Origin: an uncultured cyanobacterium
Lineage (GTDB): Bacteria > Cyanobacteriota > Cyanobacteriia > CAKZMO01
Assembly (NCBI GenBank): GCA_963719515.1
Contig: CAVRCJ010000011.1
Coordinates: 160,001 to 224,000 of the forward strand
Length of the DNA: 64,000 nucleotides
Direction: 5' to 3'
In this document: in pieces, positions 19,512 through 60,282 of the stretch
Numbering within the stretch: the stretch's first letter is position 1
Layout: each line of letters opens with the position of its first letter
Position numbers and translations under genes: made by a program
The notes under the pieces: model-generated
Told to the model about the DNA's origin: nothing
Seen by the model: only the letters and a program-made list of their open reading frames with translations
Database searches by the model: none

Positions 19512-20231
19512 TTAATGGCTTCGCCAGGTCTCTGCGGCTAGCGGCAACTCGTTCAGCTCAGCGCGGGCTTCGCGCCAGGTTGGGTAATGTTGATTTAGCA
19601 GCGCCATGAAGCGATCGCTGTGGGTTGGTTCAATCAGATGCGCCATTTCGTGAACGACGACGTATTCGAGTAAGTCTTTGGGCTTTTTGACTAGCTCGGT
19701 ATTGAGCCGGATATTCTTAGCCTGGTGGCTACAGCTTCCCCACTTTGTTTTCATCCGCTGCAAGAAGTAGCGCTCTACCTCGACGCCTAGCTTCTCCTGC
19801 CACTTTTGAATCAGCGGCGGAATGGCTTGATGCAGCAGCGATTTATGCCACTCATGCAGTACAGCGGCGCGCTTGACCCAGTCGCTGCCGGGGCGGACCT
19901 GCAGCAGGATGCGTTTGTGGTCAAGGGTTATGCTGGGCTTAGCATCTTGGTAGATTACTGACAGTAGATAGCGACGTCCCCAAAGGGAGTGGCTTTCGCG
20001 CTCCACAAACTGTCGAGGCGTTTCTCGGGCCTGGTGCTCAAACTGGCGCTGCTGCTCGCGAATCCAGCTCAGCTTGCTGATGGCGTAGGCGCGGGCTACG
20101 TCGAGGCGGGTAGACGTAGGTGCAACTAGGGTGACGCGACCGTCGGGGGGATGCACCGACAGATGGACGTTTTTAACGTCTTTCTGGGTGATGGTGAGGG
20201 CAATGTTCCCTAGCTGGATGGTCTCGGTCAT
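19512..20231 (-). CDS. YgjP/DUF45-family zinc metallohydrolase, hsdR-associated
   Basis: [18 protein letters not shown] (HEXXH); start overlaps the hsdR stop. Confidence 0.88.
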
Positions 20232-23200
20232 GGGTAGCCGCTTTGGTTTTTGATGATGTCGAAGATCGCTTCAGTTGCTCTGCGGTCTCGGGACATTATA
20301 GGGTAAAGCGCGTTAAGAACTTGCTTCGCTCTAGGGTCATCTTTCTTTCCTTTCCAGCCTGCCGGCGCTTCGTTACGCATCACGCGGTCCAGCTCCAGGG
20401 CGATCGCCGCTTTCTCATCTTCGTTCTTGGGACATTGAAACGTGGTGGCTTCAATGGTGGCTAAGTTGTTAAACAGCACAATCGCCTCGGCGTTGCCGCG
20501 TAGGGCTTCCGGCACCGTCGGGTCGGGGGCTTTCCTCGCCATGCGGTTGACCAGCGCCTCGACGTCGCGAAGGAACTGCTTGTAAGTCTCGGTATCGTCG
20601 CGCTTTTGCTGAATCAGGTCGTCCAGCAGCTTCGACATCTCGTCGTAGAACTTAGGATCGGTGAGGTTGTCGCGGATGATGGTGCGGCGGACGTTGTTGA
20701 TGATGGTTTCGGCGATCGCGCTGTTGGAGAGCTTGCCCTGGTGGTTGAGCTTTTGGGCGATGGCGTCGTGGATGCCGGTTTCGATGATGGCGTCGGTGAG
20801 GGAGAGGTTGCCGAGATTGCCCAGGGTTTGGGAGGCATCGGCTTGGATATAGCTGTTGATTAGGTGGCGCATATCCGCCTCGTAGGGCTTGGTGTCGAGC
20901 TCTTCGCCCGAGTAGTTTTTGATGGCGGTGCGGGTATCGGCGAAGAACTGGCCCTCTTGTTCAAGGGCGATAATGTCAGCGCTGGAGTAGCCCGCCTCTT
21001 GAAGCTGCTGGGCTAAGGTGGCGTAGGTGCGGACAAAGGTCGCGACCGCTTTGTAGAAGGCGATGCGCTGGGGCTCAGTTTCCTTGAGGTCGTCGGGGTT
21101 GGCGGCGTCACCGCAGAAGTAATGGAGGTACTGCTCAATTTCTTTGGGGGGCGGCACAGGCTCACAGAGATAGTGAAGCGCGTCGCGAGCAGTGTCGAGC
21201 TGGGCTTTACCTTCGGCGAGGTGGTTTTTAAGGGTGATGTTGGTGGGGCCGTCTTCGCTGGGGTCTAGCTCCTCGGAGTTGTAAACAGCGATGGAGGTTT
21301 CCACCTGCTCTAGCAAGGCTTTGTAGTCCACGATGTAGCCAAAGTCTTTGTCGTCGCCGTCCAGGCGATTGGTGCGGCAGATGGCCTGAAAGAGGGTGTG
21401 GTCCCGCATCTCGTTGTCGAGGTAGATGTAGGTGCAGGAGGGGGCATCGAAGCCGGTGAGCAGCTTACTGACGACGATCAGCAGTTTGCAGGTGGCGGGC
21501 TCTTTTTCGAAGCGGCGCTTGACGTCGTCTTCGTATTTTTTGGTGGTTTGTCCCGCTGTGAGGACGTGCTGGGTGTAGGTGTTGAATTTGTAGCGCTCGT
21601 TGCTGTTGGTCGGTTCGCGAGAGATTTTGCCGGGGCTGGGCTCGTAGGAGGTGACGATGCCGCAGTAGGGTCCAAAGTCGGTGTTTTGGAACAGGCGGAA
21701 GTAGTGGCAGGCGTCGTAGATGGAGGCAGCCACTAGGATGGCGGTGCCTCGGTCGTTGCTGAGGCGGGGCTTGAGACCGAAGTCGTGGATGATGTCGGCG
21801 ATGATGCGCTGCTTGCGCTCTCCCGCGCTCATCAGTTTCTCCATGCTGGCCCAACGCTCGCGCAGAATTGCCTGCTGGGGTTTGCTAAGCCCCCTGGTCT
21901 TTTGCTCAAACCACTCGTCGATATGCCGCTGCGAAGTAAGGCGCTGGGGCACGTCGCGGGCCTCGTATTTGAGGTCGAGGATGACGTTGTCGGCCACCGC
22001 TTCGTAGAACTTGTAGGTGTGGATGTAGGTGCCGAAGACCTCGCGGGTGGTTTGCTTGGCGTTGAGCAGCAGCGGGGTGCCGGTGAAGCCGATGAAGATG
22101 GCGTCCTTGAGCCAGCGGCTTTTCATCTGCTTGTTCATGTCGCCGCCCTGGGTGCGGTGGCATTCGTCTACGAAGACGTAGAAGCGCCCGTAAATAGGGG
22201 GCGGCTCGGTGCTGAAGTCGGGGTCAAATTTGTGAATTAGGGCGCAGAGCACGCGGGGGGTGGTTGCGGCGAGGGTGCGCTCGAACTGCTTGCGGGAGGT
22301 GATGCGGGGCGAGGCGGACTCTTCGGTGATGATGCCAGCATTTTTCATCACGCCCCAAATTTGCCTATCTAGCTCGTCGCGATCGGTGACGATGAGGATG
22401 CGGGCCTCGGGGTCATGCTCTAGCAGCCACTTGGTGAGCAGCACCATCAAGATGCTCTTGCCGCTGCCCTGGGTGTGCCAAATAATGCCGCCTTCGCGCT
22501 GGCGGATGCGGGCTTGGGCGGCTTTCATGCCGGTGTATTGGTGGGGGCGGGGCACTTTTTTGATGCCGCCGTCGAAGATGACGAAGTTATGGATCAGGTC
22601 GAGCAGACGGGCTTTATCGCACATCTCGGCCAGGGGGCGATCGAGCTTGGCACCAGCGGCATTGGGGTCGGGGTCAGGGTTCTGAAGCTTCCAGGGCGTA
22701 AAAAATTCTTCTAAGGTGTCGGTGGTGCCGTAGTGCAGCCCTTGAGCGTCGTTTCCGGCAAAGACAAACTGAACGGTGCTGAAGAAGCTTTGATTGAATA
22801 TCGCTTCTTGGTTGGTAATTAGCTGGCGGATGCCTTCGGTGATATTGACGGAGCTGCGCTTCAGTTCAATGACGCCGATGGCGATGCCGTTGAGGTAGAG
22901 GACTAGGTCGGGGCGGCGTTCGTAGCCGCCCTTGAGCGTGACTTCTTCGGCTAGGGCGAAGTCGTTGGCCTCGGGGTGGTCCCAGTCAATCAGGTGGATG
23001 GTTTCGTAGTTCTTTTTTAGGTCTGTTTTGACCTGGATGCCGTAGCGCAGCAGCTGGTAGGTGCGCAGGTTGGCCTGATAGAGGGTGATGCCGGTGGTGT
23101 CAGCGGCGGCTTTGAGCTTTTCTAGGGCGGCGTTGATGTGGGGGGTGGTGTAGCCGCGCGCCTGGAGGTTTTGGTGCAGCAGTTCGGTTTCGATGGGGCG

Positions 23201-23323
23201 GTTGTTGTCTCGGTGTTGCCAGTTGCCCAGGTAGCGGTAGCCGAGGCTGTCGGGGCGGCTGGGGTCGGTGAACAGGGCGACGACGCGGTTTTGGGTTTGG
23301 CGTTCTGGGCGGGGTTCTGGCAT
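20228..23323 (-). CDS. hsdR: type I restriction endonuclease subunit R
   Basis: [54 protein letters not shown]. Confidence 0.95.
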
Positions 23324-23326
23324 GGT

Positions 23327-23428
23327 TTAGGCAACTCCATAGCCGGTGTAGGGGCGCTTGTAGGCGGGGTGTAGGCCGAGGATGATATCTGCTTTTGGGA
23401 TGCCCATGCTAATAAGTTCTTGTTCTAG
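23327..23428 (-). pseudogene. xisI: 3' fragment of XisI-family gene
   Basis: LEQELISMGIPKADIILGLHPAYKRPYTGYGVA* matches the typical XisI C-terminus. Confidence 0.75.
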
Positions 23429-23615
23429 TAAAGCTTTTGATTTCAACGGCGATTTTCTCCTCTCCCCGCTCAGCGGCGATCAGTCGCTCGGCGGCTAGAT
23501 CAATTTTAACTTTGACTTCTTCCCACTCCAGCGCTAGCGGGTCGCTGGAGATGTGCCACTGGTCTTTTTCGAGGCCACGACGGACGGCGTTGTGGAATAG
23601 ATCTCTGGCGCTCAT
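23409..23615 (-). pseudogene. xisH: 5' fragment of XisH-family nuclease
   Basis: MSARDLFHNAVRRGLEKDQW.ISSDPL...IDLAAERLIAAER..EKIAVEIKSF, then an abrupt end. Confidence 0.85.
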
Positions 23616-24958
23616 AGTAGGCGAGTTTTGCCGGTGAGGAGTTGTTGCATCATGCCCTGTTTGAGGGCGCGAGTTTTGCTATGGCGCTGCTCTAGGGCGG
23701 TGATTTCGGCGTCAATATCGGAGAGGACTGTGGCGATCGCGGTTTGTTCTGCTACGGGGGGAAGTAACATGAAAAACTTTGCCAAGTCTTGCGCGCCAAG
23801 GTTGGGTTGCGCAGCCCCACCTGACCAAGCCTCAATCATTCGCTCGCACAAACTAGAGCTAAAATAGCAGTCTAAATACTTGCGAAACACTGAATTATGT
23901 TCAAGGCGAATAATTACAAGAGAGCTCGCTATAGCTCCGTCTCCAAAATCGCTTTTTACAATTCCAAACTTTCCTAGTGAACCTCGAAGGCAGAATAGAA
24001 TGTCTCCAGCTTTGACTTTCCCGCCTCCAAGCCTATCGTAACTATCTTGGGTTATGTAGTCCATTGAGGCATGATCAACTTGTCCTTTATTAATATGACC
24101 AGCATTTATAAATGGAATTCCGCTAAATACAAAGTCTTTTCGGGACGGGTAGTTACTACCTCGGTCGCCGTTCTCAAACACGCATATCTCTCCAAGAGTG
24201 GCCAATCGCCAATCCTCCGGAATCATCCCCACCTCAGTCTCCTTATACCCCTTCCCCTCACCAAACCCCGGTAGTCGCCGCTTACCCGTGAGGAGCTGCT
24301 GCATCGCCCCTTGCTTCAGGTCGCGCTTCTTGGCAATAAGCTGCTCTAGCGCTGCCAGCAGCTCGTCTACGTCGGAGAGGGCAGAGGCGATCGCGCGTTG
24401 TTCGGGGAGATTAGAAGGTAGACCAACATACATCAAGTTTACAATAGTGATATATATATGCTTGATGGTTGATCCACCTGAGTCTTCAAGCATCTTTCTT
24501 TGATAGAAAGGGCTTTCCAACAATAGCTTTAAGAAGATTGGTTCAACTTTTTCATTCGGGCGTATTACTGCTACTGATTGATTAATACAAATCTGTTCGT
24601 CACCCACTATCGCAAGACGGCCAAGCGAGCCGTCTTTTGTAAGTAAGAGATCATTTCTTCTAGGCTTACTCTTTGAAGATAGTAAAGTTTTATAAGCGTT
24701 CTCTGTCGTTTTCCTCGCAGTTTCAAATTGAATCCTACCGCTGTTAATATCCGCAGCAGTAATCATGAAAATCCCGGATTCTACTGTAGGCATCGGATTG
24801 GTAAAGCCGTAAGAGATAAAAGAAAAATAATTTTCTAGTCTGTCGCATTCCCAATCCTCTGGAATCACCCCCACCTCAGTCCGCTTATACCCAGCCGGAA
24901 CCCCATCAGCCTTCAATCCCTCACCCCTTACCTCTCTCATCATCCGCTCCAACAACAA
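23612..24958 (-). CDS. hsdS: type I R-M specificity subunit (start may be 24943 or 24940)
   Basis: two TRDs flanked by repeated GYKxTEVGxIPEDW and QQLLTGKxRL blocks. Confidence 0.93.
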   Translation of the reverse strand: MLLERMMREVRGEGLKADGVPAGYKRTEVGVIPEDWECDRLENYFSFISYGFTNPMPTVESGIFMITAADINSGRIQFETARKTTENAYKTLLSSKSKPRRNDLLLTKDGSLGRLAIVGDEQICINQSVAVIRPNEKVEPIFLKLLLESPFYQRKMLEDSGGSTIKHIYITIVNLMYVGLPSNLPEQRAIASALSDVDELLAALEQLIAKKRDLKQGAMQQLLTGKRRLPGFGEGKGYKETEVGMIPEDWRLATLGEICVFENGDRGSNYPSRKDFVFSGIPFINAGHINKGQVDHASMDYITQDSYDRLGGGKVKAGDILFCLRGSLGKFGIVKSDFGDGAIASSLVIIRLEHNSVFRKYLDCYFSSSLCERMIEAWSGGAAQPNLGAQDLAKFFMLLPPVAEQTAIATVLSDIDAEITALEQRHSKTRALKQGMMQQLLTGKTRLL

Positions 24959-24980
24959 AACCCATTCAAATGCTGATTTC

Positions 24981-25013
24981 GTTGGGTCACGCTAGCGCTC
25001 TGACCCAATCTAC
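24981..25013 (-). repeat. REP-like palindrome GTAG-ATTGGGTCA-GAGCGCTAGCG-TGACCCAAC
   Basis: GTAG tetranucleotide followed by an imperfect stem; second copy at 25302. Confidence 0.75.
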
Positions 25014-25027
25014 GGCTCTCACAACAA

Positions 25028-25273
25028 TCACAATCGGCCTAGCTCTTGCAAATGTCGGACATCATGCTCAAAATCATCAACGCCATAGTGAACCGGAATC
25101 TGGCGACTCGCTAGAATGTGCTGAAATGCCATCCGATGCACCCCTGCAAACCGGCTTGCCTGAGCCAAGGTAAACTTCTCCTTCTGAAAAAGTAAGATCG
25201 CAATTTCCTGACGCATCTCTGCCTCAGTCATCCGAGCCGTAGCCAAAATCTCATTAGAAATCAAAATACTCAT
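25028..25273 (-). CDS. UPF0175-family antitoxin-like protein
   Basis: EMRQEIAILLFQKEKFTLAQASRFAG...FQHILASRQIPVHYGVDDFEHD. Confidence 0.88.
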   Translation of the reverse strand: MSILISNEILATARMTEAEMRQEIAILLFQKEKFTLAQASRFAGVHRMAFQHILASRQIPVHYGVDDFEHDVRHLQELGRL

Positions 25274-25301
25274 CGATTTACCTCGCTTACCGACCGGTTT
25301 T

Positions 25302-25334
25302 GTTAGGTCACGCTAGCGCTCTGGCCTAACCTCC
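25302..25334 (-). repeat. REP-like palindrome, second copy in the same orientation
   Basis: GGAG-GTTAGGCCA-GAGCGCTAGCG-TGACCTAAC, identical loop with compensated stem changes. Confidence 0.72.
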
Positions 25335-25339
25335 CTCCC

Positions 25340-28063
25340 TCAATCCCATGCTAGCCCCATAGTCTTCAGGTGCTCCTCCACCCGCGCCGCTAGCCCCTCC
25401 ACCTTCGCCTCTAGCTCCGGCAGCGGCACCGCATAGCGCTCCGCCAGCTCCCGAATTCGTCCCGTCAGCCTCTGCGATACCCGCTCAATCTCCCCCTGCA
25501 CCGCCGCGCTCAGGGTCGGCATCCACTTGTCATTCACCACTAGCGTCTTCACTTCGTCTTCGGTGAGCTGCGGATACTTGTCGTAGGCCAGCGTGTCTAG
25601 CTCTGCCTCCATATCCTTAATCTCGCTTTTCAGCCGCTTCTCCTCGTCTAGCTGCGCCAGATAGCGTACTACCACCTCCAAGTCCTCTAGCTCCTCCGGG
25701 AGCGGGTCTTTCGTTAGGCGGTCTAAGTGTCGTTTCTCTGCCACCACAAATAGCTTCTTCGCCTTTTTAACAGTGGCCTTCATTGCCTTGTCTGTCTCTA
25801 AATACTCTGAGAGTACCTTATGCTCTTCGCCGACTGACTCCGCTAGCCGAGTCTTAATCATCTTCAGCGTCAAGCTACCCTTTTTGGGTTTTAGTGCTGT
25901 CAGGAAGTGATTGCTACTCAACTCCTGTAGCTGGGCAGCATTTTCGTCTGCTATCTCCCGAGCGGTGCTGTAAGTAAAAAATGCTGAATCTTCTTCCTCC
26001 CGCCATAGCGATACTACGACCTCCTCATAGGCCACCTGGGCGTCAGCTTTAGAAGATACATCTTTTAGCGCCCCCTCTTCGCCGCCGTGCTCTTCCAGTA
26101 GTTCCTCCAGATTGGCAACCACTGCCTCTAGCTCAGCCTGCAGCTTGTCAATCGCCGCCTGTTCCTTAGCAAAGTAGCGAGCCACAATCAGGGGCTTGGG
26201 TACCAGGTCGCAGGTCCATCCTTTATCCGTCTGTTTGCCACTTTTTGCTTCCTCTATAACCCGATAGGTTTGGGCCGCCCACCCCTCTGCCGCAATAATG
26301 TAACAGTCGTCCTGCATGGTCTCCGCCCAGTAATCCATCAGGTGCTGATATACCGCGTAGGCATCCACCAGCGGCGCGGGTTTGAACCCATCAAGCAGCT
26401 CCTCGGCGATAGTTTTAATCAATTCCTTGGGCAGGCCATCTTTATCAAATTCCTTGAGGCGGGGCACCTGCACCTGCTGCCACTGCTCAAACCGCTGCGT
26501 TACCCGCTGGGTAAAGGCGGCAAATTCCGCGTGATCTAAGATGGTCGCCTTCACCTGGGCGATCGCGGGCTGCAGGTGAAAGTAATCGGGGCGATCGGCG
26601 GGCTGAAATAGGGCAGAGCGCACCTGGGGCATCACCTGCCAGTAGCGCTCTAGGTCATCAATATCTTGCTTGGGGATGCCGCCGCGCAGGTGGGCCTCTA
26701 GGTCTTGGATATCCTCCGGCTCGGTGCTGTCGATATAGCGCGGCAGGTTGAGGTTGTAGTCGTTCTTCGGGTCCGCAATCTCCTCAAAGGGCACCATGCG
26801 GGCGTAGCGCGGGATATTGGTCTGTTTGGTAAAGGTATCTACGATGCGGTGGATGTCCTGCTCCCGCAGGCGGTTCTTGTTGCCGTCTTTTTTGAACCCC
26901 TTGGAAGCATCCACCATAAAAATGCCCCGCCGCGCCGTGGCGTTTTCCTTATCCAGCACCACAATGCAGGCCGGAATGCCCGTACCGTAAAACAGGTTAG
27001 GGGGCAGGCCAATGATGCCCTTTAAGTAGCCTGAATGCACTAGCTGCTGGCGAATCACCGCTTCCGCATTGCCGCGAAACAGCACCCCGTGGGGCAAAAT
27101 GCAGGCGGCTTTGCCCGTGCGCTTCATGGAGCGGATGATGTGCAGCAGATAGGCATAGTCCCCCTGCTTAGCCGGTGGCTCGCCCCATTCAAAGCGCTTG
27201 TAGCGCTCGCTGGCGGGCGTGAGGCCCGTGCTCCAGGTCTTATCGGAAAAGGGGGGATTCGCTACCACATAGTCGTAAGTGCGCAGCTGCTCACCGTCCT
27301 TGAACTTGGGAGCCGCCAGCGTATTGCCCGACAGAATATTCGCCGTGGGGAAATCGTGCAGAATCATATTCATCCGGGCTAGACCGGAAGTAGTGACGTC
27401 CTTCTCCTGCCCTTCTAGGGTGATGCGCTTGCCCGCCTGGGCCGCTACCTTCAGCAGCAGCGACCCGGAGCCGCAGGTGGGGTCGTAGGCGGTGGTAGAG
27501 GCTACGGTGTTCTCTGGCGAAATGCCAATCACCTGAGCAATAACGCGGCTCACCTCTGCCGGGGTATAAAACTGCCCTTTGCTTTTGCCGCTTTCGGTGG
27601 CGAAGTGCCGCATCAAGTACTCGTAGGCATCCCCCAAGATGTCGTCGTGGTCGGCCCGGTTTTTAGAAAAATCCAGCTCCGGCTTTTGAAAGATGGCCAC
27701 CAAGTTGGTGAGCCGCTCCACCATCGCCGACCCTTCCCCCAGCTTGTTGGGGTCGTTGAAGTCCGGGAATTCGCTGCGGGCTAGGCTTTGATTGGCCTCG
27801 ATCAGCGGTGAGATAATCTGCTTATTAATTTTGTCGCCAATATCGTTCTTGCCCTTGAGGGCCACCATATCCCAAAAGCTTGCCCCTTCCGGGATGGCGA
27901 CGGGCGGCGCGTAGTCGTCAGAGTCGGCGTATTTGTCAGAGATATATTTGATGAACAGCATAAACAGGACATAGTCCTTGTACTGGCTGGCATCCATGCC
28001 GCCGCGCAGTTCATCACAAGAGGCCCAAAGTGAGGAGTAGAGTTCGGATTTTTTAATTGCCAA
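25340..28063 (-). CDS. hsdM: type I R-M N6-adenine methyltransferase with long C-terminal helical domain
   Basis: DELRGGMDASQYKDY, GQFYTP, YDPTCGSGSLL, VANPPF; TTG start. Confidence 0.95.
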   Translation of the reverse strand: MAIKKSELYSSLWASCDELRGGMDASQYKDYVLFMLFIKYISDKYADSDDYAPPVAIPEGASFWDMVALKGKNDIGDKINKQIISPLIEANQSLARSEFPDFNDPNKLGEGSAMVERLTNLVAIFQKPELDFSKNRADHDDILGDAYEYLMRHFATESGKSKGQFYTPAEVSRVIAQVIGISPENTVASTTAYDPTCGSGSLLLKVAAQAGKRITLEGQEKDVTTSGLARMNMILHDFPTANILSGNTLAAPKFKDGEQLRTYDYVVANPPFSDKTWSTGLTPASERYKRFEWGEPPAKQGDYAYLLHIIRSMKRTGKAACILPHGVLFRGNAEAVIRQQLVHSGYLKGIIGLPPNLFYGTGIPACIVVLDKENATARRGIFMVDASKGFKKDGNKNRLREQDIHRIVDTFTKQTNIPRYARMVPFEEIADPKNDYNLNLPRYIDSTEPEDIQDLEAHLRGGIPKQDIDDLERYWQVMPQVRSALFQPADRPDYFHLQPAIAQVKATILDHAEFAAFTQRVTQRFEQWQQVQVPRLKEFDKDGLPKELIKTIAEELLDGFKPAPLVDAYAVYQHLMDYWAETMQDDCYIIAAEGWAAQTYRVIEEAKSGKQTDKGWTCDLVPKPLIVARYFAKEQAAIDKLQAELEAVVANLEELLEEHGGEEGALKDVSSKADAQVAYEEVVVSLWREEEDSAFFTYSTAREIADENAAQLQELSSNHFLTALKPKKGSLTLKMIKTRLAESVGEEHKVLSEYLETDKAMKATVKKAKKLFVVAEKRHLDRLTKDPLPEELEDLEVVVRYLAQLDEEKRLKSEIKDMEAELDTLAYDKYPQLTEDEVKTLVVNDKWMPTLSAAVQGEIERVSQRLTGRIRELAERYAVPLPELEAKVEGLAARVEEHLKTMGLAWD

Positions 28064-28139
28064 GGCGAGCTAACTGTATACGAACGCTGTATTTGCCAGA
28101 TAATACCCCTCTTTTCGTGTCTTATCCCTATGTTTCAGC

Positions 28140-29096
28140 ATGTTATTACCCACCTACGATGAACTCATGCTGCCCCTACTGCAGCTCGCCGCCCAAAGCC
28201 CTCAAGAGCAGCCCGTCCGTAACCTACGGGAACAGCTCGCCCAACAGCTCAACCTCACCCCCGAACAGCGCGCCATCAAGCTTCCCAGCGGTCGCCAAGC
28301 CGCCTTTGATAACCGCGTTGGCTGGGCTTCCACCTACCTACGCAAAGCAGGGCTGCTAGAGAGCACGCGCCGAGGCTACGTCAGGATTACCCTGCGAGGC
28401 CAAGAGGTCTTAAACCAGCGCCCAACCGCGATAGACAACGCCTACCTACAGCAATTTGAAGAATTCAAAGACTTTAGCGATCGCGCCAGCGGGGACGACA
28501 GCGCTCTACGCACCACTCCAATAAAGGGAACCGATGTAGTCACCCCAGGCCCTCAACCTGACGAACGCACCACGCCAGACGAGCGCATTCGCCAAGCTTA
28601 TGCCGTTCTAGAAGCCGACTTACGCGACAACCTGCTCGAAAAGGTCAAGCAAATGGACCCAGGTGACTTTGAGGGCCTAGTCCTCCAGCTCCTCCACGCC
28701 ATGGGCTACGGCGGCAGCCTCAAAGACGTCGAAGGCGTCCCCACCGGCCCAGACGGCGGCATCGACGGCCTGATTAAAGAAGACAAGCTCGGCCTCGACA
28801 CCATCTACATCCAGGCCAAGCGCTGGGGCGATAAATCCGTCGGTCGCGAGAAGATCCAGGCTTTTGCAGGAGCGATCGCTGGGGTCGGGGCGCGCAAGGG
28901 CGTTTTCATGACCACCTCCACCTTTACCCAGCAGGCCCACAGCTACGTCAACGGGCTGCAGGGCAGCAAAATCGTTCTAGTCGATGGGCAAACGCTAGCG
29001 CAGCTGATGATTGAGCACAACGTCGGCGTCAGCATCCGCGAGACCTTCGAAATCAAGCGCATCGACGAAGACTTCTTCTCTGATGCAGAAATTTAG
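28140..29096 (+). CDS. mrr: Mrr type IV methyl-directed restriction endonuclease
   Basis: Mrr_N (PTYDELMLPLL, NRVGWASTYL) plus DGGIDG...YIQAKRW. Confidence 0.92.
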   Translation: MLLPTYDELMLPLLQLAAQSPQEQPVRNLREQLAQQLNLTPEQRAIKLPSGRQAAFDNRVGWASTYLRKAGLLESTRRGYVRITLRGQEVLNQRPTAIDNAYLQQFEEFKDFSDRASGDDSALRTTPIKGTDVVTPGPQPDERTTPDERIRQAYAVLEADLRDNLLEKVKQMDPGDFEGLVLQLLHAMGYGGSLKDVEGVPTGPDGGIDGLIKEDKLGLDTIYIQAKRWGDKSVGREKIQAFAGAIAGVGARKGVFMTTSTFTQQAHSYVNGLQGSKIVLVDGQTLAQLMIEHNVGVSIRETFEIKRIDEDFFSDAEI

Positions 29097-29154: not shown

Positions 29155-29364
29155 TGCAGCGCCCCGATCTTTAAAGATCACACCCTACACTTTAAACGCA
29201 GCACCCGATCTTTAAAGCGTGACCCCTCAACTCTCAAACGTAAGCCGCGATCTTTAAGGTGCGATCGCCCAACTCTCAAACGCAGCCCGCGATCTTTAAA
29301 AGCGGAGCCGTCGATCTTCAAAGATCGCCCCCAACAACTCAAATTGCCCCGCCCAACTTCAAAA
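29155..29364. repeat. degenerate 21-bp tandem array (10 units, 42-bp higher-order period)
   Basis: units end alternately in GATCTTTAAA-like and AACTCTCAAA-like motifs with exact 21-nt spacing. Confidence 0.8.
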
Positions 29365-29476
29365 ATTGCCCCGCCCCATCCAAAGCATCGCCAGCAACTT
29401 TCACCATCGCCCTCCCCCCAAACCAACCTCTAGAGCAAACCCCAACGCTCAAAACGCCAACCAAGACAAACCCTAA

Positions 29477-29525
29477 ACCCACTTCAGTGGGTGTCTTCAG
29501 GTTAGCCCGCGCTTCAGCTGCGGGC
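29477..29525. repeat. twin short hairpins with TTCA loops (REP/IS200-end-like)
   Basis: ACCCAC-TTCA-GTGGGT and GCCCGCGC-TTCA-GCTGCGGGC. Confidence 0.5.
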
Positions 29526-29578
29526 GAGGGTAAACGCCCCAAAAGCGATCGCCCCCGCAAAAATTTCCCTCTTCCCTC

Positions 29579-29607
29579 TTGCCATCCCAGCACAAATGGC
29601 CTATTCT
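29579..29607 (+). promoter_or_regulatory. sigma70-like promoter
   Basis: TTGCCA-17 nt-TATTCT. Confidence 0.55.
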
Positions 29608-29613
29608 CTTGAG

Positions 29614-29838
29614 CTAGAGCCGTGGTCCCCATGGCTTCAGTCTCCCAAGAATTCGGTCGGGCGGAGCTACTGGTTGTTCACAGCAACCCGTAGCCCCTAA
29701 GCCACCCAAACAGAGTAAGGCTGTCAGGATGACCTGAGGTTGATCATAAGAGATACCCGCGTCATTCCGAACCTCATAACGTCTGGAATGACCGGTTCCT
29801 GGGGGACTCCTAACCCAAAACATCAACAGGAGTCCCTC
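29614..29838 (+). promoter_or_regulatory. structured 5' leader ending in an SD-sequestering hairpin (copy A)
   Basis: hairpins GCTAC..GGTTG/CAACC..GTAGC and GTCATTCC/GGAATGAC; GGGACTCCT(29803-11)/AGGAGTCCC(29828-36) just before the ATG. Confidence 0.65.
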
Positions 29839-30213
29839 ATGTCATCTCAATATAATTCGCTGCCTCTTTCCCTAGAGGCGGCACAGCTCGCATTGGCACA
29901 GCACGCCGCCGAGCAATCTACTCGCCTGCCCTCCCCCACCGGCGGCGAGCCCCACATCCCCACCCTCGTCGAGCCCGCCCCCGCGCCAGGGTGCGTTGGT
30001 CCTTCAGGACCAGTCGAAGACTCACACCTGCGTCACATCATCATCGGCTCCCCCGAAGGCGTGCAGGAAGCGATCGCCCGCCTCCACATGCTGCACTACG
30101 TCGAGCGGCGCTACTGGACCCCGCCCATGCCCATCCGCGACCAAGGCCTGCGGATTACCCCAAATCTGGGGCAGGTCATGAGCTACCTGGTGCAGCAGCG
30201 ACCCCTGAGGTAG
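29839..30213 (+). CDS. hypothetical protein, LRHIIIGS..LH.L.Y...W..P..VM family (copy A)
   Basis: AGGAG SD; C-terminal motif shared with 57085-57423 and 51140-51292. Confidence 0.75.
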   Translation: MSSQYNSLPLSLEAAQLALAQHAAEQSTRLPSPTGGEPHIPTLVEPAPAPGCVGPSGPVEDSHLRHIIIGSPEGVQEAIARLHMLHYVERRYWTPPMPIRDQGLRITPNLGQVMSYLVQQRPLR

Positions 30214-30237
30214 CTCATTCGCCTACCCCCCTTAATT

Positions 30238-30457
30238 GATACCGCTGGCGAATTTCATACCTTGCAACATTCGTGCTGTTTCACCCCTTAAAGAGGCCCC
30301 CCAGCCCCCAAGTTTGGGGGAGCAAGATTCGAAGTCAGAATTCTTGAAAGCATTTAATAGCAAGAGATCTGGCATTTTTCTGGTTCCCCCAGGATTGGGG
30401 GCGGAGGGGGCCAGCAAGACGCCAAATGCCATTACGAGATATTTCGCCAGCGGCATC
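30238..30457. mobile_element. MITE-like element, 220 bp, with terminal inverted repeats and an internal inverted pair of short dispersed repeats
   Basis: GATACCGCTGGCGAA / TTCGCCAGCGGCATC (14/15), TT flanks; internal GGCCCCCCAGCCCCCAAGTTTGGGGGAG and a similar inverse copy. Confidence 0.6.
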
Positions 30458-30692
30458 TTGGCAAGGGGGAGCTAGAGGGGGTCAGACCAACCTGTGTGTA
30501 CACCGTGGCTTACCAAGGGGGACGCCGGAGGCGGGAGTCTATCCAAAGCTGATAGCTGTCTATCTGCCCCCCTCAACCATCCGATCCTGATTCACCTAAA
30601 TATTGTCAATGTTAAGATCGCGGAGGGTTTCCCTCCGCAAAAGGAGTAGCGACCTATACTGGAATCCCCCGCAGCAACCGGGCCGAATCATC

Positions 30693-31685
30693 ATGGGCGT
30701 TGACATTCAGCAATACAAAACCCAGCAGTTCACCGAATGGGCTCCCCTAGCCTGCAAAGGCGCACTGGGGCTAATGGCGATCGCCACCCTCCTTTCCTTC
30801 TTCCTGCCCCGGCAGGTCTTAGACGAGCGCGTCACCATCGCCGCCGAAGAGGTGGCCACCATTGGCCCCATTCAACCCCAGCAAAGCCCCATCGGTGCCA
30901 TGCGCATCGACGCCGAGGCGCAGCTCCCCGCCAACAGCTGGGCCACCTTCGAGCTGCAGATACTCGACGAGCAGGGCGAAGTGATCGCCTCCAGCCTAAA
31001 GCCCGCCTGGCGAGAGTCAGGCACCTGGCGAGAAGACGGCGAATCGGGCACCTGGGACGAAGAAGACGCCAAAGGCCGGTTCGACATCCGTCAGGCCACC
31101 ATCGACTCACCCGTCAGCATCGCCGTCTCCAGCCTTGAGCAAGGCTCAGCCAACGGACAGCCCCTCAGCCAGCCCGTCACCTACCGCGTCAGAGTCTGGG
31201 ATGGCGCAGTAGACCGCCGGTTTTTGTGGAGCGGCCTTGTGGGCGTAGGGCTTTTGACCTGGATCACCGGAGCCTCAGTGAGCCGCACCGGGCGGGTGGC
31301 CGTTTCCAAAAGCATCGGCGACAGCGACCTAATGGCCCGCACCCAGGTGGGCGGCCCCGACGCCCTCGTACAGGTCGTCATCAGCGTGCTCTCAGACGAC
31401 ACCTCACCCCCCTTCCTAACCGCCAACTTTTTCCTCAAAGACAGCCAGGGGGAAGCGGTCTACGAAAAGCAAGTGCCAATAGATCTTTCATTTAAAAGAG
31501 AAAACGGCAAAATCGACAGCGCTCGGGGGCAATGCGCCCTCGACCTGATCATCGAGCCGCAAGCCTCCTACGGCTTTTACGTCGAGATCACCCCCGACAT
31601 GCCCGTCGATAAAACAACCCTCAAGGTCATCCAGGGCGCTCGCCGCACTGGTCCCGTCGAAGTCACCCACCTAAAACTCTCCTAG
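30693..31685 (+). CDS. membrane protein, first gene of the spermidine-synthase/DUF4178 operon
   Basis: two TM segments; NSWATFELQILDEQG...WRESGTWREDGESGTWDE resembles C-terminal parts of long DUF4178 proteins. Confidence 0.7.
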   Translation: MGVDIQQYKTQQFTEWAPLACKGALGLMAIATLLSFFLPRQVLDERVTIAAEEVATIGPIQPQQSPIGAMRIDAEAQLPANSWATFELQILDEQGEVIASSLKPAWRESGTWREDGESGTWDEEDAKGRFDIRQATIDSPVSIAVSSLEQGSANGQPLSQPVTYRVRVWDGAVDRRFLWSGLVGVGLLTWITGASVSRTGRVAVSKSIGDSDLMARTQVGGPDALVQVVISVLSDDTSPPFLTANFFLKDSQGEAVYEKQVPIDLSFKRENGKIDSARGQCALDLIIEPQASYGFYVEITPDMPVDKTTLKVIQGARRTGPVEVTHLKLS

Positions 31686-51062: not shown

Positions 51063-51139
51063 GGTATGTTCCCATCAGGTAAACGCACCGTTGAATATGG
51101 CATTTGGTCAGCGATCGCCTGAATATCCGATAATAAATA

Positions 51140-51292
51140 ATGTCCAACAATGCGGTGCGTTTGCTCTACGCCCGCCCCGACGAGTGGTCCGAGCCTATTC
51201 CGCTGAACGACACCGGCGGCATTCTGCGCGGCCTCACGCCCACCGACGTCATGCGCATCCTCACTAAGCGCATCCCGCTGCCGCCTCGCTAA
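51140..51292 (+). pseudogene. 3' fragment paralogous to 57085-57423 (copy C)
   Basis: YARPDEWSEPIPLNDTGGILRGLTPTDVMRILTKRIPLPPR vs YAHPSDWSQTLPLNNPDGVLRGLTPTDVMRILTKRISLPQR. Confidence 0.8.
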
Positions 51293-57084: not shown

Positions 57085-57423
57085 CTAGTCGGAGCGCTGC
57101 GGTAGGGAGATGCGCTTGGTGAGGATGCGCATGACGTCTGTGGGGGTGAGGCCGCGCAGGACGCCGTCGGGGTTGTTCAGGGGCAGGGTCTGGGACCAAT
57201 CGCTGGGATGGGCGTAGCCGAGCTGATGCAGCCGGTCACGGCAGTTGTTGACGGCGTAGAGGGAGCCCACAGCGATGAGGCGCAGGGTGTTGAAGCTGGG
57301 GGTGCGGCCTTTGTCTTCGAGCAGGTAGTCGCCGGTTCTAGGATCGATGTCGAGGGCATTTTGGTGGGCGGCCAAGGCGACGTTGTGGCCTGCGTTGAGC
57401 TGGCCGGAAGGATTGTATGTCAT
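57085..57423 (-). CDS. hypothetical protein, same family as 29839-30213 (copy B)
   Basis: LRLIAVGS..AV....RLHQLGYA...WS...VMRILTKR; AGGAG SD. Confidence 0.8.
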   Translation of the reverse strand: MTYNPSGQLNAGHNVALAAHQNALDIDPRTGDYLLEDKGRTPSFNTLRLIAVGSLYAVNNCRDRLHQLGYAHPSDWSQTLPLNNPDGVLRGLTPTDVMRILTKRISLPQRSD

Positions 57424-57638
57424 TTGAGGGTTGTCTCCTTTCGTGGGTTAGGAAAGACAACCCAAACGTTTAGCCACCCCGCGAATATGGCGAGGTGGCT
57501 ACCCTGGGATAAAATCCCTGTAGCTCTCGCTGGTTGTCTCAGCGGGGGTTAGTCGTCTGGAAGTGGTGGTAACACGACCAGGCGGCGCTAAATATTTGGG
57601 GTGTCGGAGTTAGGACAGCGTGTGATTTGCGTCCATGG
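57424..57638 (-). promoter_or_regulatory. structured 5' leader ending in an SD-sequestering hairpin (copy B)
   Basis: TAGCCACC/GGTGGCTA stem; GGGTTGTCT...CCTAACCC...AGGAGACAACCC hairpin 4 nt before the ATG. Confidence 0.65.
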
Positions 57639-57644
57639 CTTGGC

Positions 57645-57673
57645 ATGATAGCGGAGTTTTAGCGCGATCGCAA
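57645..57673 (-). promoter_or_regulatory. sigma70-like promoter
   Basis: TTGCGA-17 nt-TATCAT on the minus strand. Confidence 0.55.
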
Positions 57674-57753: not shown

Positions 57754-58200
57754 TTACCAAAGCTTTTCATCTACTGCCCTCGACCTCGCTTCCATTTGCC
57801 GTACTTTTTCTTCCATACGCTCAAAAGCTGTCATTACGTTGTCAGCCGCTGAATTCCGGGAATACATGTTTAAAGTGGTAAATGAATTTTTATCTTCTAA
57901 AATAGCTATGCTTGGCGCTAGCTTTTCTATTAATGCCGTCAATTCATCATATTGAGGCTTAAGCTCTTCTAAAGCCTTAGAAATCTCTCTTTTCTGAAAT
58001 AGAGCCTGCCGCGCTGTATGTTCATCTCCCCTTTGCAAAGCTACTTGCGCTCTCTGCTTTCATCTGCCAATTTCTAACTCTAACTGTTTGAATTTATTTT
58101 GATACCAAGCTTGGTGATCTATCAGCTTAGTAAGCGCTTGCTTTGCGTTTTGAGTAGTCACTTACATTTCTCCCATTGAAATACTCAGGGCGCTTGAGCA
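57754..58200 (-). pseudogene. PspA/IM30-like gene with in-frame stops
   Basis: EM*VTTQNAKQAL...EIGR*KQRAQVALQRGDEHTARQAL...AFERMEEKVRQMEARS. Confidence 0.75.
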
Positions 58201-58402
58201 ATTACCTGTCAACGCCCTATTTATCCTGTTGAAGTGCATTCGCGCTTATATTAGTGATAGCCTCAGCAGTCTATTTTGTTGCGGCAATTTTCCCATTTGA
58301 TGCTGACTTCAACCTGCTGTTTTAACTCGAATACAATCTCTGATGTCTATCTTTTTGTTCTAAGAAGCTGGTTTAGTAATTATAGTGGCAAATAGGTTTT
58401 GA

Positions 58403-58957
58403 TCACAAAGCCCAATCGGGCGCTGAGCCCAGACAAACCATTCTATGCAATGCGTATCCACCCATCTCAGCATTACTCGGGAAGCCGACATCTCCTCGGA
58501 TTACTACCTCATAACCATTTTCGTTGACGACTGAACCGGAAATCCCGTCACTACAATGGACATCTTTAACTGACTCTTCAATGACCGCACCTTCAGGATC
58601 ATCGTAAATCGTTCTGACTTGAACTCTGTAGCGCTGATACATTCCTGTAGGACGATCTTCCACCAATTCTGAAGCTGTAATTCTAGAGGACCAAGCGCCA
58701 TTATCTCGCCAGGACTGCCAGTAGAGAATTGTTTCAGAGTCAGGGCGAGCAATAGAATCTCTAGGGATATCTGCAATTAGCTCAGAGTACCCATCCTGTG
58801 TCAAGTCTAAATCGTTGGCTAAAATAGTGCTCGATATCTGAGCAGTCTGCGCAAAGCTTGATTTTCCTACGCCTAAGAAGACACCTAAAACGGCGATAGA
58901 AATAGCCAAATTTCTACCCCAAAAAACTATCTGAAAACTATTCTTCCTTGCCATCAT
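58403..58957 (-). CDS. hypothetical exported protein
   Basis: basic N-terminus, hydrophobic core, SFA cleavage-like site; start overlaps the upstream stop. Confidence 0.65.
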   Translation of the reverse strand: MMARKNSFQIVFWGRNLAISIAVLGVFLGVGKSSFAQTAQISSTILANDLDLTQDGYSELIADIPRDSIARPDSETILYWQSWRDNGAWSSRITASELVEDRPTGMYQRYRVQVRTIYDDPEGAVIEESVKDVHCSDGISGSVVNENGYEVVIRGDVGFPSNAEMGGYALHRMVCLGSAPDWAL

Positions 58958-59247
58958 ACTAATCCATAGCTCTCAAGCAATGCTCTCAACTCATCCTTAT
59001 TCAGTCTTGAGTAACCTTTTAACCCATGCTGCTTAGCGACTACAAACATGTCTACTTTCTTCATATCTCTAGACCCAACTCGTTTTGAATAGTATGAGAT
59101 TGGCCCTGGCAAATTAGCATGCACTTTTCCAGTTCTAGAGTTCCAACTGATAGGGCCTGCCTTTATGCTTGTTGAGATACCAGACTTTGAGAGATTCACG
59201 GATAAACCAGGAAACAGCGTTATCTTTTTTCTAAATCTAAAATTCAT
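58954..59247 (-). CDS. DUF4236 domain fused to Rho-N-like helical domain
   Basis: FRFRKKITLFPGLSVNLSKSGISTS (DUF4236) and AKQHGLKGYSRLNKDELRALL (Rho_N-like). Confidence 0.8.
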   Translation of the reverse strand: MNFRFRKKITLFPGLSVNLSKSGISTSIKAGPISWNSRTGKVHANLPGPISYYSKRVGSRDMKKVDMFVVAKQHGLKGYSRLNKDELRALLESYGLV

Positions 59248-59467
59248 GGCATCCTAAAGAAACTAGAGCGTTGACTCAATTATCTTCTTGCGCAACAATC
59301 GCGTTCTTAAGGTGCTTAAGGCTTTATAGTAAATTTAAGTTTTCATGAATAAGCCCCCCCGGATTTCGAAAACTTCCGGGCTAGCTATATTTTTACAAAA
59401 GGCGCAAGTAATATTGCTATTTAGAACTGCTTGAGAATTATTGTGTTCGCTCAGGCGATCGCCGCGC

Positions 59468-59971
59468 TTAACTCCATCCATCGACCCGTAGATTGTTAGA
59501 GTTGACCGTATCAACACCCTGATTTTGAAGATATGCCGCTAGCTTTAGGTCATCCGTTAAAACGAGATACTGACCTTGAGCGACCTCAAAAATACTGCAG
59601 TCCGTCAATCCAAAACGAGAAAATTTCTCATTTTTTGAGATGATCTCGCTTTGGCTATAATGCTCGCTGAATTGGCTAAGAAGCTGAGAAAAAACCACGA
59701 GGCACTGCGATCGCTCTGGCTCACCCAACTGATTGATCAAGCTATTGACTTCCGTTAAGATATTCGGCGTTGTCACAATCTCATCTCGAAACGCTAACAG
59801 AAGGTCGCACAACAAAGTATAGTCGTCAACATTAAAGCTGTTGGTCCGCTTGAATCGAGATATCCGACTTGGATTTACAGCTCCAACAAAATAGAGCAGC
59901 AAAATATTTGTATCGATTAAAATACCTTTGCGCCGATACTTATTCAAAAGCTCTGCTGCATAGCTGTTCAT
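59468..59971 (-). CDS. PIN domain protein (putative RNase toxin)
   Basis: ILIDTNILLL, TTPNILTEV, FGLTDCSI, VLTDD. Confidence 0.85.
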   Translation of the reverse strand: MNSYAAELLNKYRRKGILIDTNILLLYFVGAVNPSRISRFKRTNSFNVDDYTLLCDLLLAFRDEIVTTPNILTEVNSLINQLGEPERSQCLVVFSQLLSQFSEHYSQSEIISKNEKFSRFGLTDCSIFEVAQGQYLVLTDDLKLAAYLQNQGVDTVNSNNLRVDGWS

Positions 59972-60282
59972 ACCTGCCGAATCTTCATCGATTCGATCTT
60001 GCCCGTTGAGGCATTCACAGCGAAAAGCTTATATTCCCGCTTAAATCCGCGAGGTGCATTAATCGACTGCATCATCTCATCAAGAGCAGACTTGCGCTTA
60101 ACTGGCACATCATACCCTAGCGTAACCAGCCAGGTTTTCTCATCTTCAGACAGCTCAACCTCTTCCAGCCTTAGATCATCAAGATCGCTGCCCATCAAAT
60201 CTTGAAGCTCTCGAACATAGTGATAGGCGGACTTTACAGCCGTTTTTACGTCTTTGATATCCAGCGTCGTTTCATCTAACAT
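59968..60282 (-). CDS. hypothetical protein coupled to the PIN gene (putative antitoxin)
   Basis: ATGA overlap with the PIN gene; LRLEEVELSED...WLVTLGY...REYKLF. Confidence 0.75.
   Translation of the reverse strand: MLDETTLDIKDVKTAVKSAYHYVRELQDLMGSDLDDLRLEEVELSEDEKTWLVTLGYDVPVKRKSALDEMMQSINAPRGFKREYKLFAVNASTGKIESMKIRQV

Follow-up and report, generated by a model that had tools for sequence, protein, structure and literature searches.

A multicopy cyanobacterial cassette of a two-fold leader RNA and a small orphan gene, probably under antisense control

In a 64,000-nucleotide stretch of DNA from an uncultured cyanobacterium (hereafter the window), we found a real and uncatalogued RNA-protein cassette, a self-contained unit of promoter, structured leader and small orphan gene that on balance is probably an antisense-controlled two-state switch. 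The leader has two mutually exclusive folds, of which one contains a long-range helix, P0, that excludes the hairpin sequestering the Shine-Dalgarno (SD) sequence. It is quite likely that a promoter on the opposite strand of the leader gives rise to an RNA of ~95 nt that pairs with the loops of hairpins P2 and P3, covers the linker between P1 and P2, blocks P0 and so locks the SD.

A sequence-only reading of the window had proposed for one copy (copy A) a sigma70-like promoter, a ~225-nt leader with hairpins, a CTAAGCC motif after the main stem, a final stem that buries the SD and a 124-aa protein, all of which were located. The sense promoter (-35 TTGCCA, 17 nt, -10 TATTCT) lies at 29579-29607 on the plus strand and was the sole sigma70-like site in a consensus scan of 29400-30700 (shuffle mean 0.4), which called no terminator on either strand. 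The leader, whose start is placed from the -10 box, occupies 29614-29838 (225 nt, plus strand) and folds at -91.7 kcal/mol (z = -5.8), a stability equalled by 0 of 200 shuffles. Its first hairpin, P1 (29617-29638), has a variable loop and is absent from one subfamily according to leader alignment and folding; it is followed by the linker (29640-29658) that, as judged from cognate duplex energies, is the 5' arm of the activating helix P0 (anti-anti-SD). The main hairpin P2 with its hypervariable loop and the CTAAGCC junction (29697-29703) spans 29659-29703, with double changes in 8/8 core pairs, and hairpin P3 (29710-29724), also with a hypervariable loop, has them in 5/5 pairs. Hairpin P5 (29761-29792) belongs to the OFF state and shows double changes in 5/8 pairs; its 3' end is common to P0, whose 3' arm (29790-29807; duplex energies, covariation and folding) overlaps P5 and the anti-SD arm. 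In the SD-sequestering hairpin P6 (29802-29836, from folding), the SD is at 29828-29832 and the stem is formed by 29803-29811 and 29828-29836, ending 2 nt 5' of the ATG at 29839. The open reading frame (ORF; 29839-30213, plus strand) encodes the 124-aa orphan protein, for which the ORF, alignment and AlphaFold indicate a Pro-rich variable N-half and a conserved ~60-aa beta-alpha-beta core. The motif CCTAACCC, which had been pointed out before and lies in the final stem's loop, shows no conservation among 60 aligned leaders; the conserved motif in these is instead a CTAACC/CTGACC junction 3' of the main stem. Directly after copy A, at 30226-30470, is a ~245-bp MITE-like element with terminal inverted repeats that is independent of the cassette and has 93-95% identical copies elsewhere in the source genome. 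Imperfect ~21-bp tandem repeats are found at 29160-29440, between mrr and copy A, and similar ones upstream of several other copies.

The other copy described before, copy B (57085-57673, minus strand), matches copy A in architecture, with a promoter at 57645-57673, a leader, a predicted antisense -10 box at 57510-57515 and a 112-aa ORF at 57085-57423. A third family member at 51137-51292 on the plus strand is truncated and leaderless, and consists of the 3' part only. Copies A and B are both real, but they are not the whole set: the 83 ORF pieces that an iterated profile search of the 5.3-Mb source genome returned at E<1e-3 merged into 78 loci of this orphan protein family. A promoter of the same form was found 209-236 nt before the start at 51 of the 78 loci, and a leader profile built from 51 loci detected the ~220-nt leader at 66/78, leaving 12/78 without one; a covariance model found 69 leaders in the same genome. 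The similarity between copies spans the -35 box through the stop codon, and intact ORFs predominate (45/51 at >=85 aa). Leader matches apart from a gene numbered only three in the leader-profile search of the source genome. The three leader remnants, at C11:319556-319677, C1:23247-23400 and C1:181051-181203, comprise one that is geneless, one before a truncated ORF and one ~700 bp from its gene.

The protein was present in at least 24 of the 201 cyanobacterial genomes sampled, and the family comprises 924 clusters at 50% identity. The leader RNA was detected in at least 11 of 121 cyanobacterial genomes from 7 families, the source genome counted and two of the matches being weak. Homologues from other lineages carry a short one-hairpin leader or stand divergent from an XRE/HTH or RHH regulator gene; the divergent leaderless ones suggest that expression is repressed in these contexts as well. 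In one family (loci L010, L012, L073, L082 and L153) the gene was preceded by the short single-hairpin leader, and it occurs twice in tandem in L082. A conserved ~80-aa XRE-like HTH family is divergent from leaderless members at L069, L023, L027, L127-L129, L137 and L140, and repeated operator-like boxes lie between these HTH genes and the leaderless members.

As anticipated by the sequence-only reading, the leader matched no Rfam family: there was no match at gathering over the whole window and no credible one at E<=10 over the copy A locus. Neither the copy A nor the copy B protein matched Pfam, NCBIfam or PHROGs, searches of Pfam and PDB sequences with a 61-member alignment gave no match, and the protein family was without a match in the phage collection searched. 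An earlier description of the cassette was not found in the literature covered, motif catalogues included; the supplements of PMC12873609 and PMC2864571, outside that scope, could list the RNA. The screen in PMC12873609 is described as anchored on KEGG orthologues and as excluding overlapping antisense RNAs.

The proposal that a conserved, covarying leader acts as a translational lock was borne out, at equilibrium. In the 60 aligned leaders, the OFF-state helices showed double changes in 26/32 pairs, a count that excludes the poorly aligned SD hairpin, and 87% of their cells were paired; the covariation score was reached by 0/500 shuffles, and slid controls were 29-44% paired. Helix P0, in which the unpaired 5' linker pairs with a stretch spanning the P5 end and the anti-SD arm, comprises 13-17 bp. 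It had double changes in 8/13 pairs and its cell-level measures beat 500/500 shuffles, whereas the shuffles were not beaten when doubly changed pairs were counted (217/500). The cognate linker-target duplex was better than the non-cognate mean in 60/60 leaders (-21.5 vs. -13.7 kcal/mol). The ON and OFF folds are 3-10 kcal/mol apart, and opening the ribosome-binding site (RBS) costs a median of 5.5 kcal/mol (n=51 leaders). When the RBS was forced open, P0 appeared in each of the three examples shown whose minimum was OFF, the fourth, copy B, holding P0 already. In equilibrium calculations on truncated RNAs, which are not kinetics, P0 of copy A was dominant in transcripts of 194-218 nt and the SD hairpin took over from 230 nt; P0 with at least 8 pairs formed in 44/51 transcripts cut before the RBS, compared to 17/51 at full length and 11/51 with a shuffled linker. 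Blocking the 5' half had a small effect, taking the average RBS accessibility from 0.41 to 0.33, with a drop of >0.1 in 13/51. About half of the copies have a U-rich tract after P5. The putative U-tracts contain only 4-5 U of 8 in most copies. Upstream ORFs were found in 40/51 leaders, somewhat above the shuffle mean of 28, and several subfamilies have no start codon at the shared upstream-ORF start position. A replication control region with a translated leader peptide was considered and rejected, as the downstream gene is a small orphan and not a replication initiator.

What flips the leader is suggested by its only conserved unpaired motif, located in the P4 loop, which reads TA[A/C]AAT on the opposite strand. 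The TA x x AT pattern is the signature of a sigma70 -10 box. With a shift of up to 3 nt to the best box, the positions were T55 A60 x x A58 T58 in 60 leaders, which are related sequences, and in a held-out set of 34 leaders, aligned by the model without any shift, they were T31 A32 x x A28 T28, two rows being gapped; an extended -10 TG preceded the box in 18/32 after these two rows were dropped. The predicted antisense start has an A at +1 in 41/60 and a G at -14 in 35/60. The -35 is weak, the predicted antisense promoter of copy A failed the consensus scan of 29400-30700, and the motif could also be an RNA loop or a protein-binding site. In copy A, the predicted -10 box is TATGAT at 29743-29748 on the minus strand; projected from this box and the A at +1, the putative cis-antisense RNA of ~95 nt would lie at 29639-29736 (minus strand; ends predicted, the 3' end being uncertain) and would cover P3, P2 and the linker. 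A switch acting in cis only, whether a riboswitch, a protein-binding leader or a kinetic timer, could instead be flipped by a ligand, a protein or the speed of transcription, and it would be favored by two exclusive folds and by an order of nascent ON and mature OFF that need no second RNA. We consider it unlikely, given that no conserved aptamer-like core was apparent in the leader, that the P2 and P3 loops are its most variable part and that its sole conserved unpaired motif reads as an opposite-strand -10 box with an extended TG.

The loops under the footprint of the predicted antisense RNA change faster than synonymous sites, as expected for copy-specific recognition. Among 17 copies of the copy A subfamily, differences per pair in the loop columns of P2 and P3 are ~0.6-0.7, compared to 0.40 at fourfold-degenerate sites. 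In four copies that are 94-96.5% identical over the leader, the loops of P1-P3 vary at 18/23 columns, the loops of P4-P6 at 0/44, the remainder of the leader at 6/199 and the fourfold-degenerate sites at 14/58; the difference between the P1-P3 loops and the fourfold-degenerate sites (p = 1e-5) comes from four related copies and might be heightened by gene conversion in the 3' half. The P2 loop is unique to each copy, none being common to any two of 41. Within their own cassettes, the variable loops had 0 and 1 downstream complements in 41 copies, compared to 1.0 and 1.6 expected, and their matches to their own 2-kb flanks (6, 10, 9 and 6) showed no clear excess over non-cognate flanks (6.8, 5.8, 6.8 and 5.9). 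With no complement in the cassette and no clear excess in the flanks, an RNA from the opposite strand is the simplest reader of these loops.

Two further explanations were weighed against these loop data. Bridge-RNA and TIGR systems are classes of guide systems, and two short hypervariable loops on a conserved scaffold beside a small protein would fit loops that guide the protein to DNA or RNA targets; the lack of matches clearly beyond non-cognate rates in the 2-kb flanks and the frequent occurrence of the protein without the RNA make such guides highly improbable. A C4/CI-type system, in which a same-strand processed small RNA represses its own operon, would share the layout of promoter, structured leader and small gene as well as mobile-element contexts, and we regard it as equally remote: C4 (RF01695) gave no match at gathering or at E<=10, the P4 control scoring 74.9 bits, the variable loops lack the downstream complement that it calls for, and the protein did not align with the one P4 Kil sequence compared (probability 0.07%). 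The earlier analogy with type I toxin-antitoxin or phage C4/CI leaders holds in part: antisense-type control is likely, given the conserved opposite-strand -10 box and the divergence of the loops that the predicted RNA would cover, but membership in C4/CI and a membrane peptide of the type I kind were not supported. Under antisense control, target and antisense RNA are read from opposite strands of one DNA segment, so that the loops can change without compensatory cost and give each copy a private key. In the I-complex plasmids, incompatibility is governed by bases in the loops of the antisense RNA (PMC10724649).

By comparison and computation, the 5' linker pairs with the anti-SD arm as helix P0 in the ON fold and leaves the RBS free, and the OFF fold contains P5 together with the SD hairpin. 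Since P0 is able to form before the RBS is transcribed, the nascent transcript may adopt the P0 fold and be translatable for a while, after which it would refold to OFF. The antisense RNA would pair with the P2 and P3 loops first and next cover the linker, by which P0 would be blocked and the SD locked. Should this presumably short-lived RNA be lost, because the host is shut off or the locus disappears, the candidate effector would be released.

The proteins of the family are 80-160 aa in length and are predicted to be a soluble beta-alpha-beta domain, in which a variable Pro-rich N-half is followed by the ~60-aa core. This core contains one invariant Trp and evolves under purifying selection (pN/pS 0.23, a crude estimate from 14 copies). 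The AlphaFold monomer is beta-alpha-beta with pLDDT 81, and in the prediction for a natural two-domain tandem fusion both units form (pLDDT 77), which suggests that the protein forms a dimer. Type I toxins are usually short hydrophobic membrane peptides, SymE and RalR being exceptions. A transmembrane helix was found in 0/51 family members (maximum 19-residue hydropathy 1.2, none above 1.6), which speaks against the membrane peptide implied by the type I analogy. Fold searches gave a best Z of 4.1 for the monomer, with no Foldseek match at E<=0.001, and a best Z of 5.5 for the tandem fusion (rmsd 2.3 over 67 residues), none of them a meaningful match. The missing fold match does not show a new fold, and there was no match to a toxin-like fold. 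Homology to P4 epsilon and ORF151 was rejected on comparison, a search with NF033153 was silent in every genome, controls included, and one cluster, whose protein has ~84 aa, carries in the Atlas the name 'peptide ABC transporter substrate-binding protein', which we reject as an automatic mislabel. P0025 and P0127 include one tandem two-domain member and one fused to a TIR-WD40 C-terminus, possibly as a rearrangement artefact.

The location at island borders that had been noted for the two copies holds genome-wide, on the upstream side only. Low GC (<0.53) was found in 36% of 77 windows covering the 3 kb upstream of promoters, compared to 9% of the background (p = 4e-6), and in 4% of 78 downstream windows, the downstream flanks being core-like. 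Defence or mobile families occurred upstream at 22/39 loci and downstream at 5/40 (p = 4e-5). These families (TIR, NACHT/STAND, caspase, PIN/NYN, R-M, Uma2, ABC-3C, DUF4145, dynamin and transposase) were classified by hand in a random sample of 40 of the 51 leader-bearing loci, in which 74/96 upstream and 74/109 downstream ORFs were scanned, those judged spurious or more distant being left out. Because of this one-sided link to defence islands, the leader can serve as a marker for island edges. The island upstream of copy A (19512-29096), which is context outside the cassette, contains a type I R-M operon (hsdM, hsdS and hsdR), a YgjP-like peptidase, a UPF0175 gene and a divergent Mrr endonuclease. 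Copy B adjoins a stretch of 41-43% GC; this low-GC island upstream of it (57754-60282) encodes DUF4236 and unannotated genes and has a gene pair that by eye resembles an antitoxin and a PIN-like toxin. At the site of copy A, same-genus genomes have a 34-nt remnant of the 3' end of the gene in one case and an insertion sequence in another, which suggests that the site is old and unstable and not freshly inserted.

A different origin for the cassettes is an early regulatory gene of cyanobacterial plasmids or integrative elements that was left or amplified at integration hot spots, with the antisense RNA serving copy-number or immunity control and with antirepressor, recombination-direction helper or replication helper as candidate roles. 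Homologues are present on 13 cyanobacterial plasmid records, and the six inspected lie near HTH/ParG, rep-primase, integrase or HNH genes, the plasmid homologues lying beside an HTH or ParG gene, upstream of rep/primase, or upstream of a tyrosine integrase. Pointing the same way, an integron-integrase (IntI) remnant is found upstream of one source-genome copy (L160, C18:28988-29101), an IntI-like gene is convergent with and abuts one copy in genome G017 (L175), and HIP1 occurs within 100 nt upstream of 29/51 promoters, compared to 11% of intergenic windows. We nevertheless judge this origin fairly unlikely, because the source genome has one tyrosine recombinase match for 78 loci, the copies are not clustered, inspection by eye of 51 3' flanks and of a four-copy alignment showed neither shared end repeats nor target duplications, the mostly intact ORFs are under purifying selection, and the leader had no match in five annotated plasmid loci or in T. 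variabilis plasmid D. A general link to integrons was not supported either, the association being limited to one copy in the source genome and one in G017. The window has 94 HIP1 sites, and psbA-type and other cyanobacterial genes are found in the source genome, marking the DNA as cyanobacterial.

For the protein, a growth-inhibiting or abortive effector is our tentative assignment, somewhat short of an even chance, and a mobile-element regulator is a doubtful one, other roles sharing the remaining probability; we make these assignments solely because the gene appears repressed in each context seen and lies near defence islands. If such an effector were released on loss of the antisense RNA, the cassettes would act at the edge of defence islands as sentinels or as addiction modules. 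In its fullest form, the cell would hold ~70 orthogonal antisense-locked sentinels with private keys under diversifying selection, each guarding one defence island and, once its antisense RNA lapses, setting free a soluble growth-arrest or anti-phage effector of a new class, a scenario that we regard as speculative and rather improbable as a whole; if true, it would represent a phylum-specific type I-like system far larger than the known ones and a ready library of orthogonal riboregulators. The family in any case combines an uncatalogued RNA, an uncatalogued protein family and a precise proposed mechanism, and it is an example from nature of how loops diversify between ~70 paralogous switches that share one cell. 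The pairs of leader and antisense RNA could serve as orthogonal regulators in cyanobacterial engineering.

Among known systems, the C4 or P4 CI RNA with kil/icd resembles the cassette in having a structured leader before a small gene and in its mobile-element-like settings. It differs in that its regulator is encoded on the same strand, compared to the opposite strand proposed here, there is no match in sequence or structure, and the protein shows no relation to the P4 Kil sequence compared. Hok/ldr-type loci are multicopy and copy-specific, with a long locked leader and an internal antisense promoter. The cassette likewise has a long locked leader, a predicted internal antisense promoter and many copy-specific loci, whereas its product, 80-160 aa long, is predicted to fold as a soluble beta-alpha-beta domain and lacks a transmembrane helix, and its ON state is predicted to arise co-transcriptionally and not, as in hok, by 3' processing. 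Almost no type I-like antisense systems are known from cyanobacteria, and a candidate from 2025 is called the first of them (PMC12390103). Like the cassette, this candidate, Microcystis MsoT1/MsoA1, is a putative antisense-controlled system of a cyanobacterium; its candidate toxins are transmembrane peptides of 39-81 aa (PMC12390103), and it is set apart from the cassette by this description, not by sequence comparison.

In ColIb-P9 Inc RNA/repZ and IncB/IncK RNAI, activation depends on a long-range pairing that a cis-antisense RNA blocks, and specificity is determined by nucleotides in the loops (PMC10724649, PMC5415839). The predicted cis-antisense RNA of the cassette would similarly block the long-range pairing that opens an SD-sequestering stem; I-complex control, however, uses a loop pseudoknot and governs Rep, while the cassette has a 13-17-bp helix formed from a linker, a small orphan gene and ~70 chromosomal copies. 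In the attenuators of pT181 and pIP501, an antisense RNA decides between two folds of the nascent leader (PMC5415839). A choice between two leader folds, and a U-rich tract after P5 in about half of the copies, are consistent with this scheme, whereas no terminator was called in the cassette and its clearest output is SD sequestration. By analogy with these systems, the cassette probably works like the antisense control of IncI, IncB and pT181 and like the leaders of the hok/ldr type.
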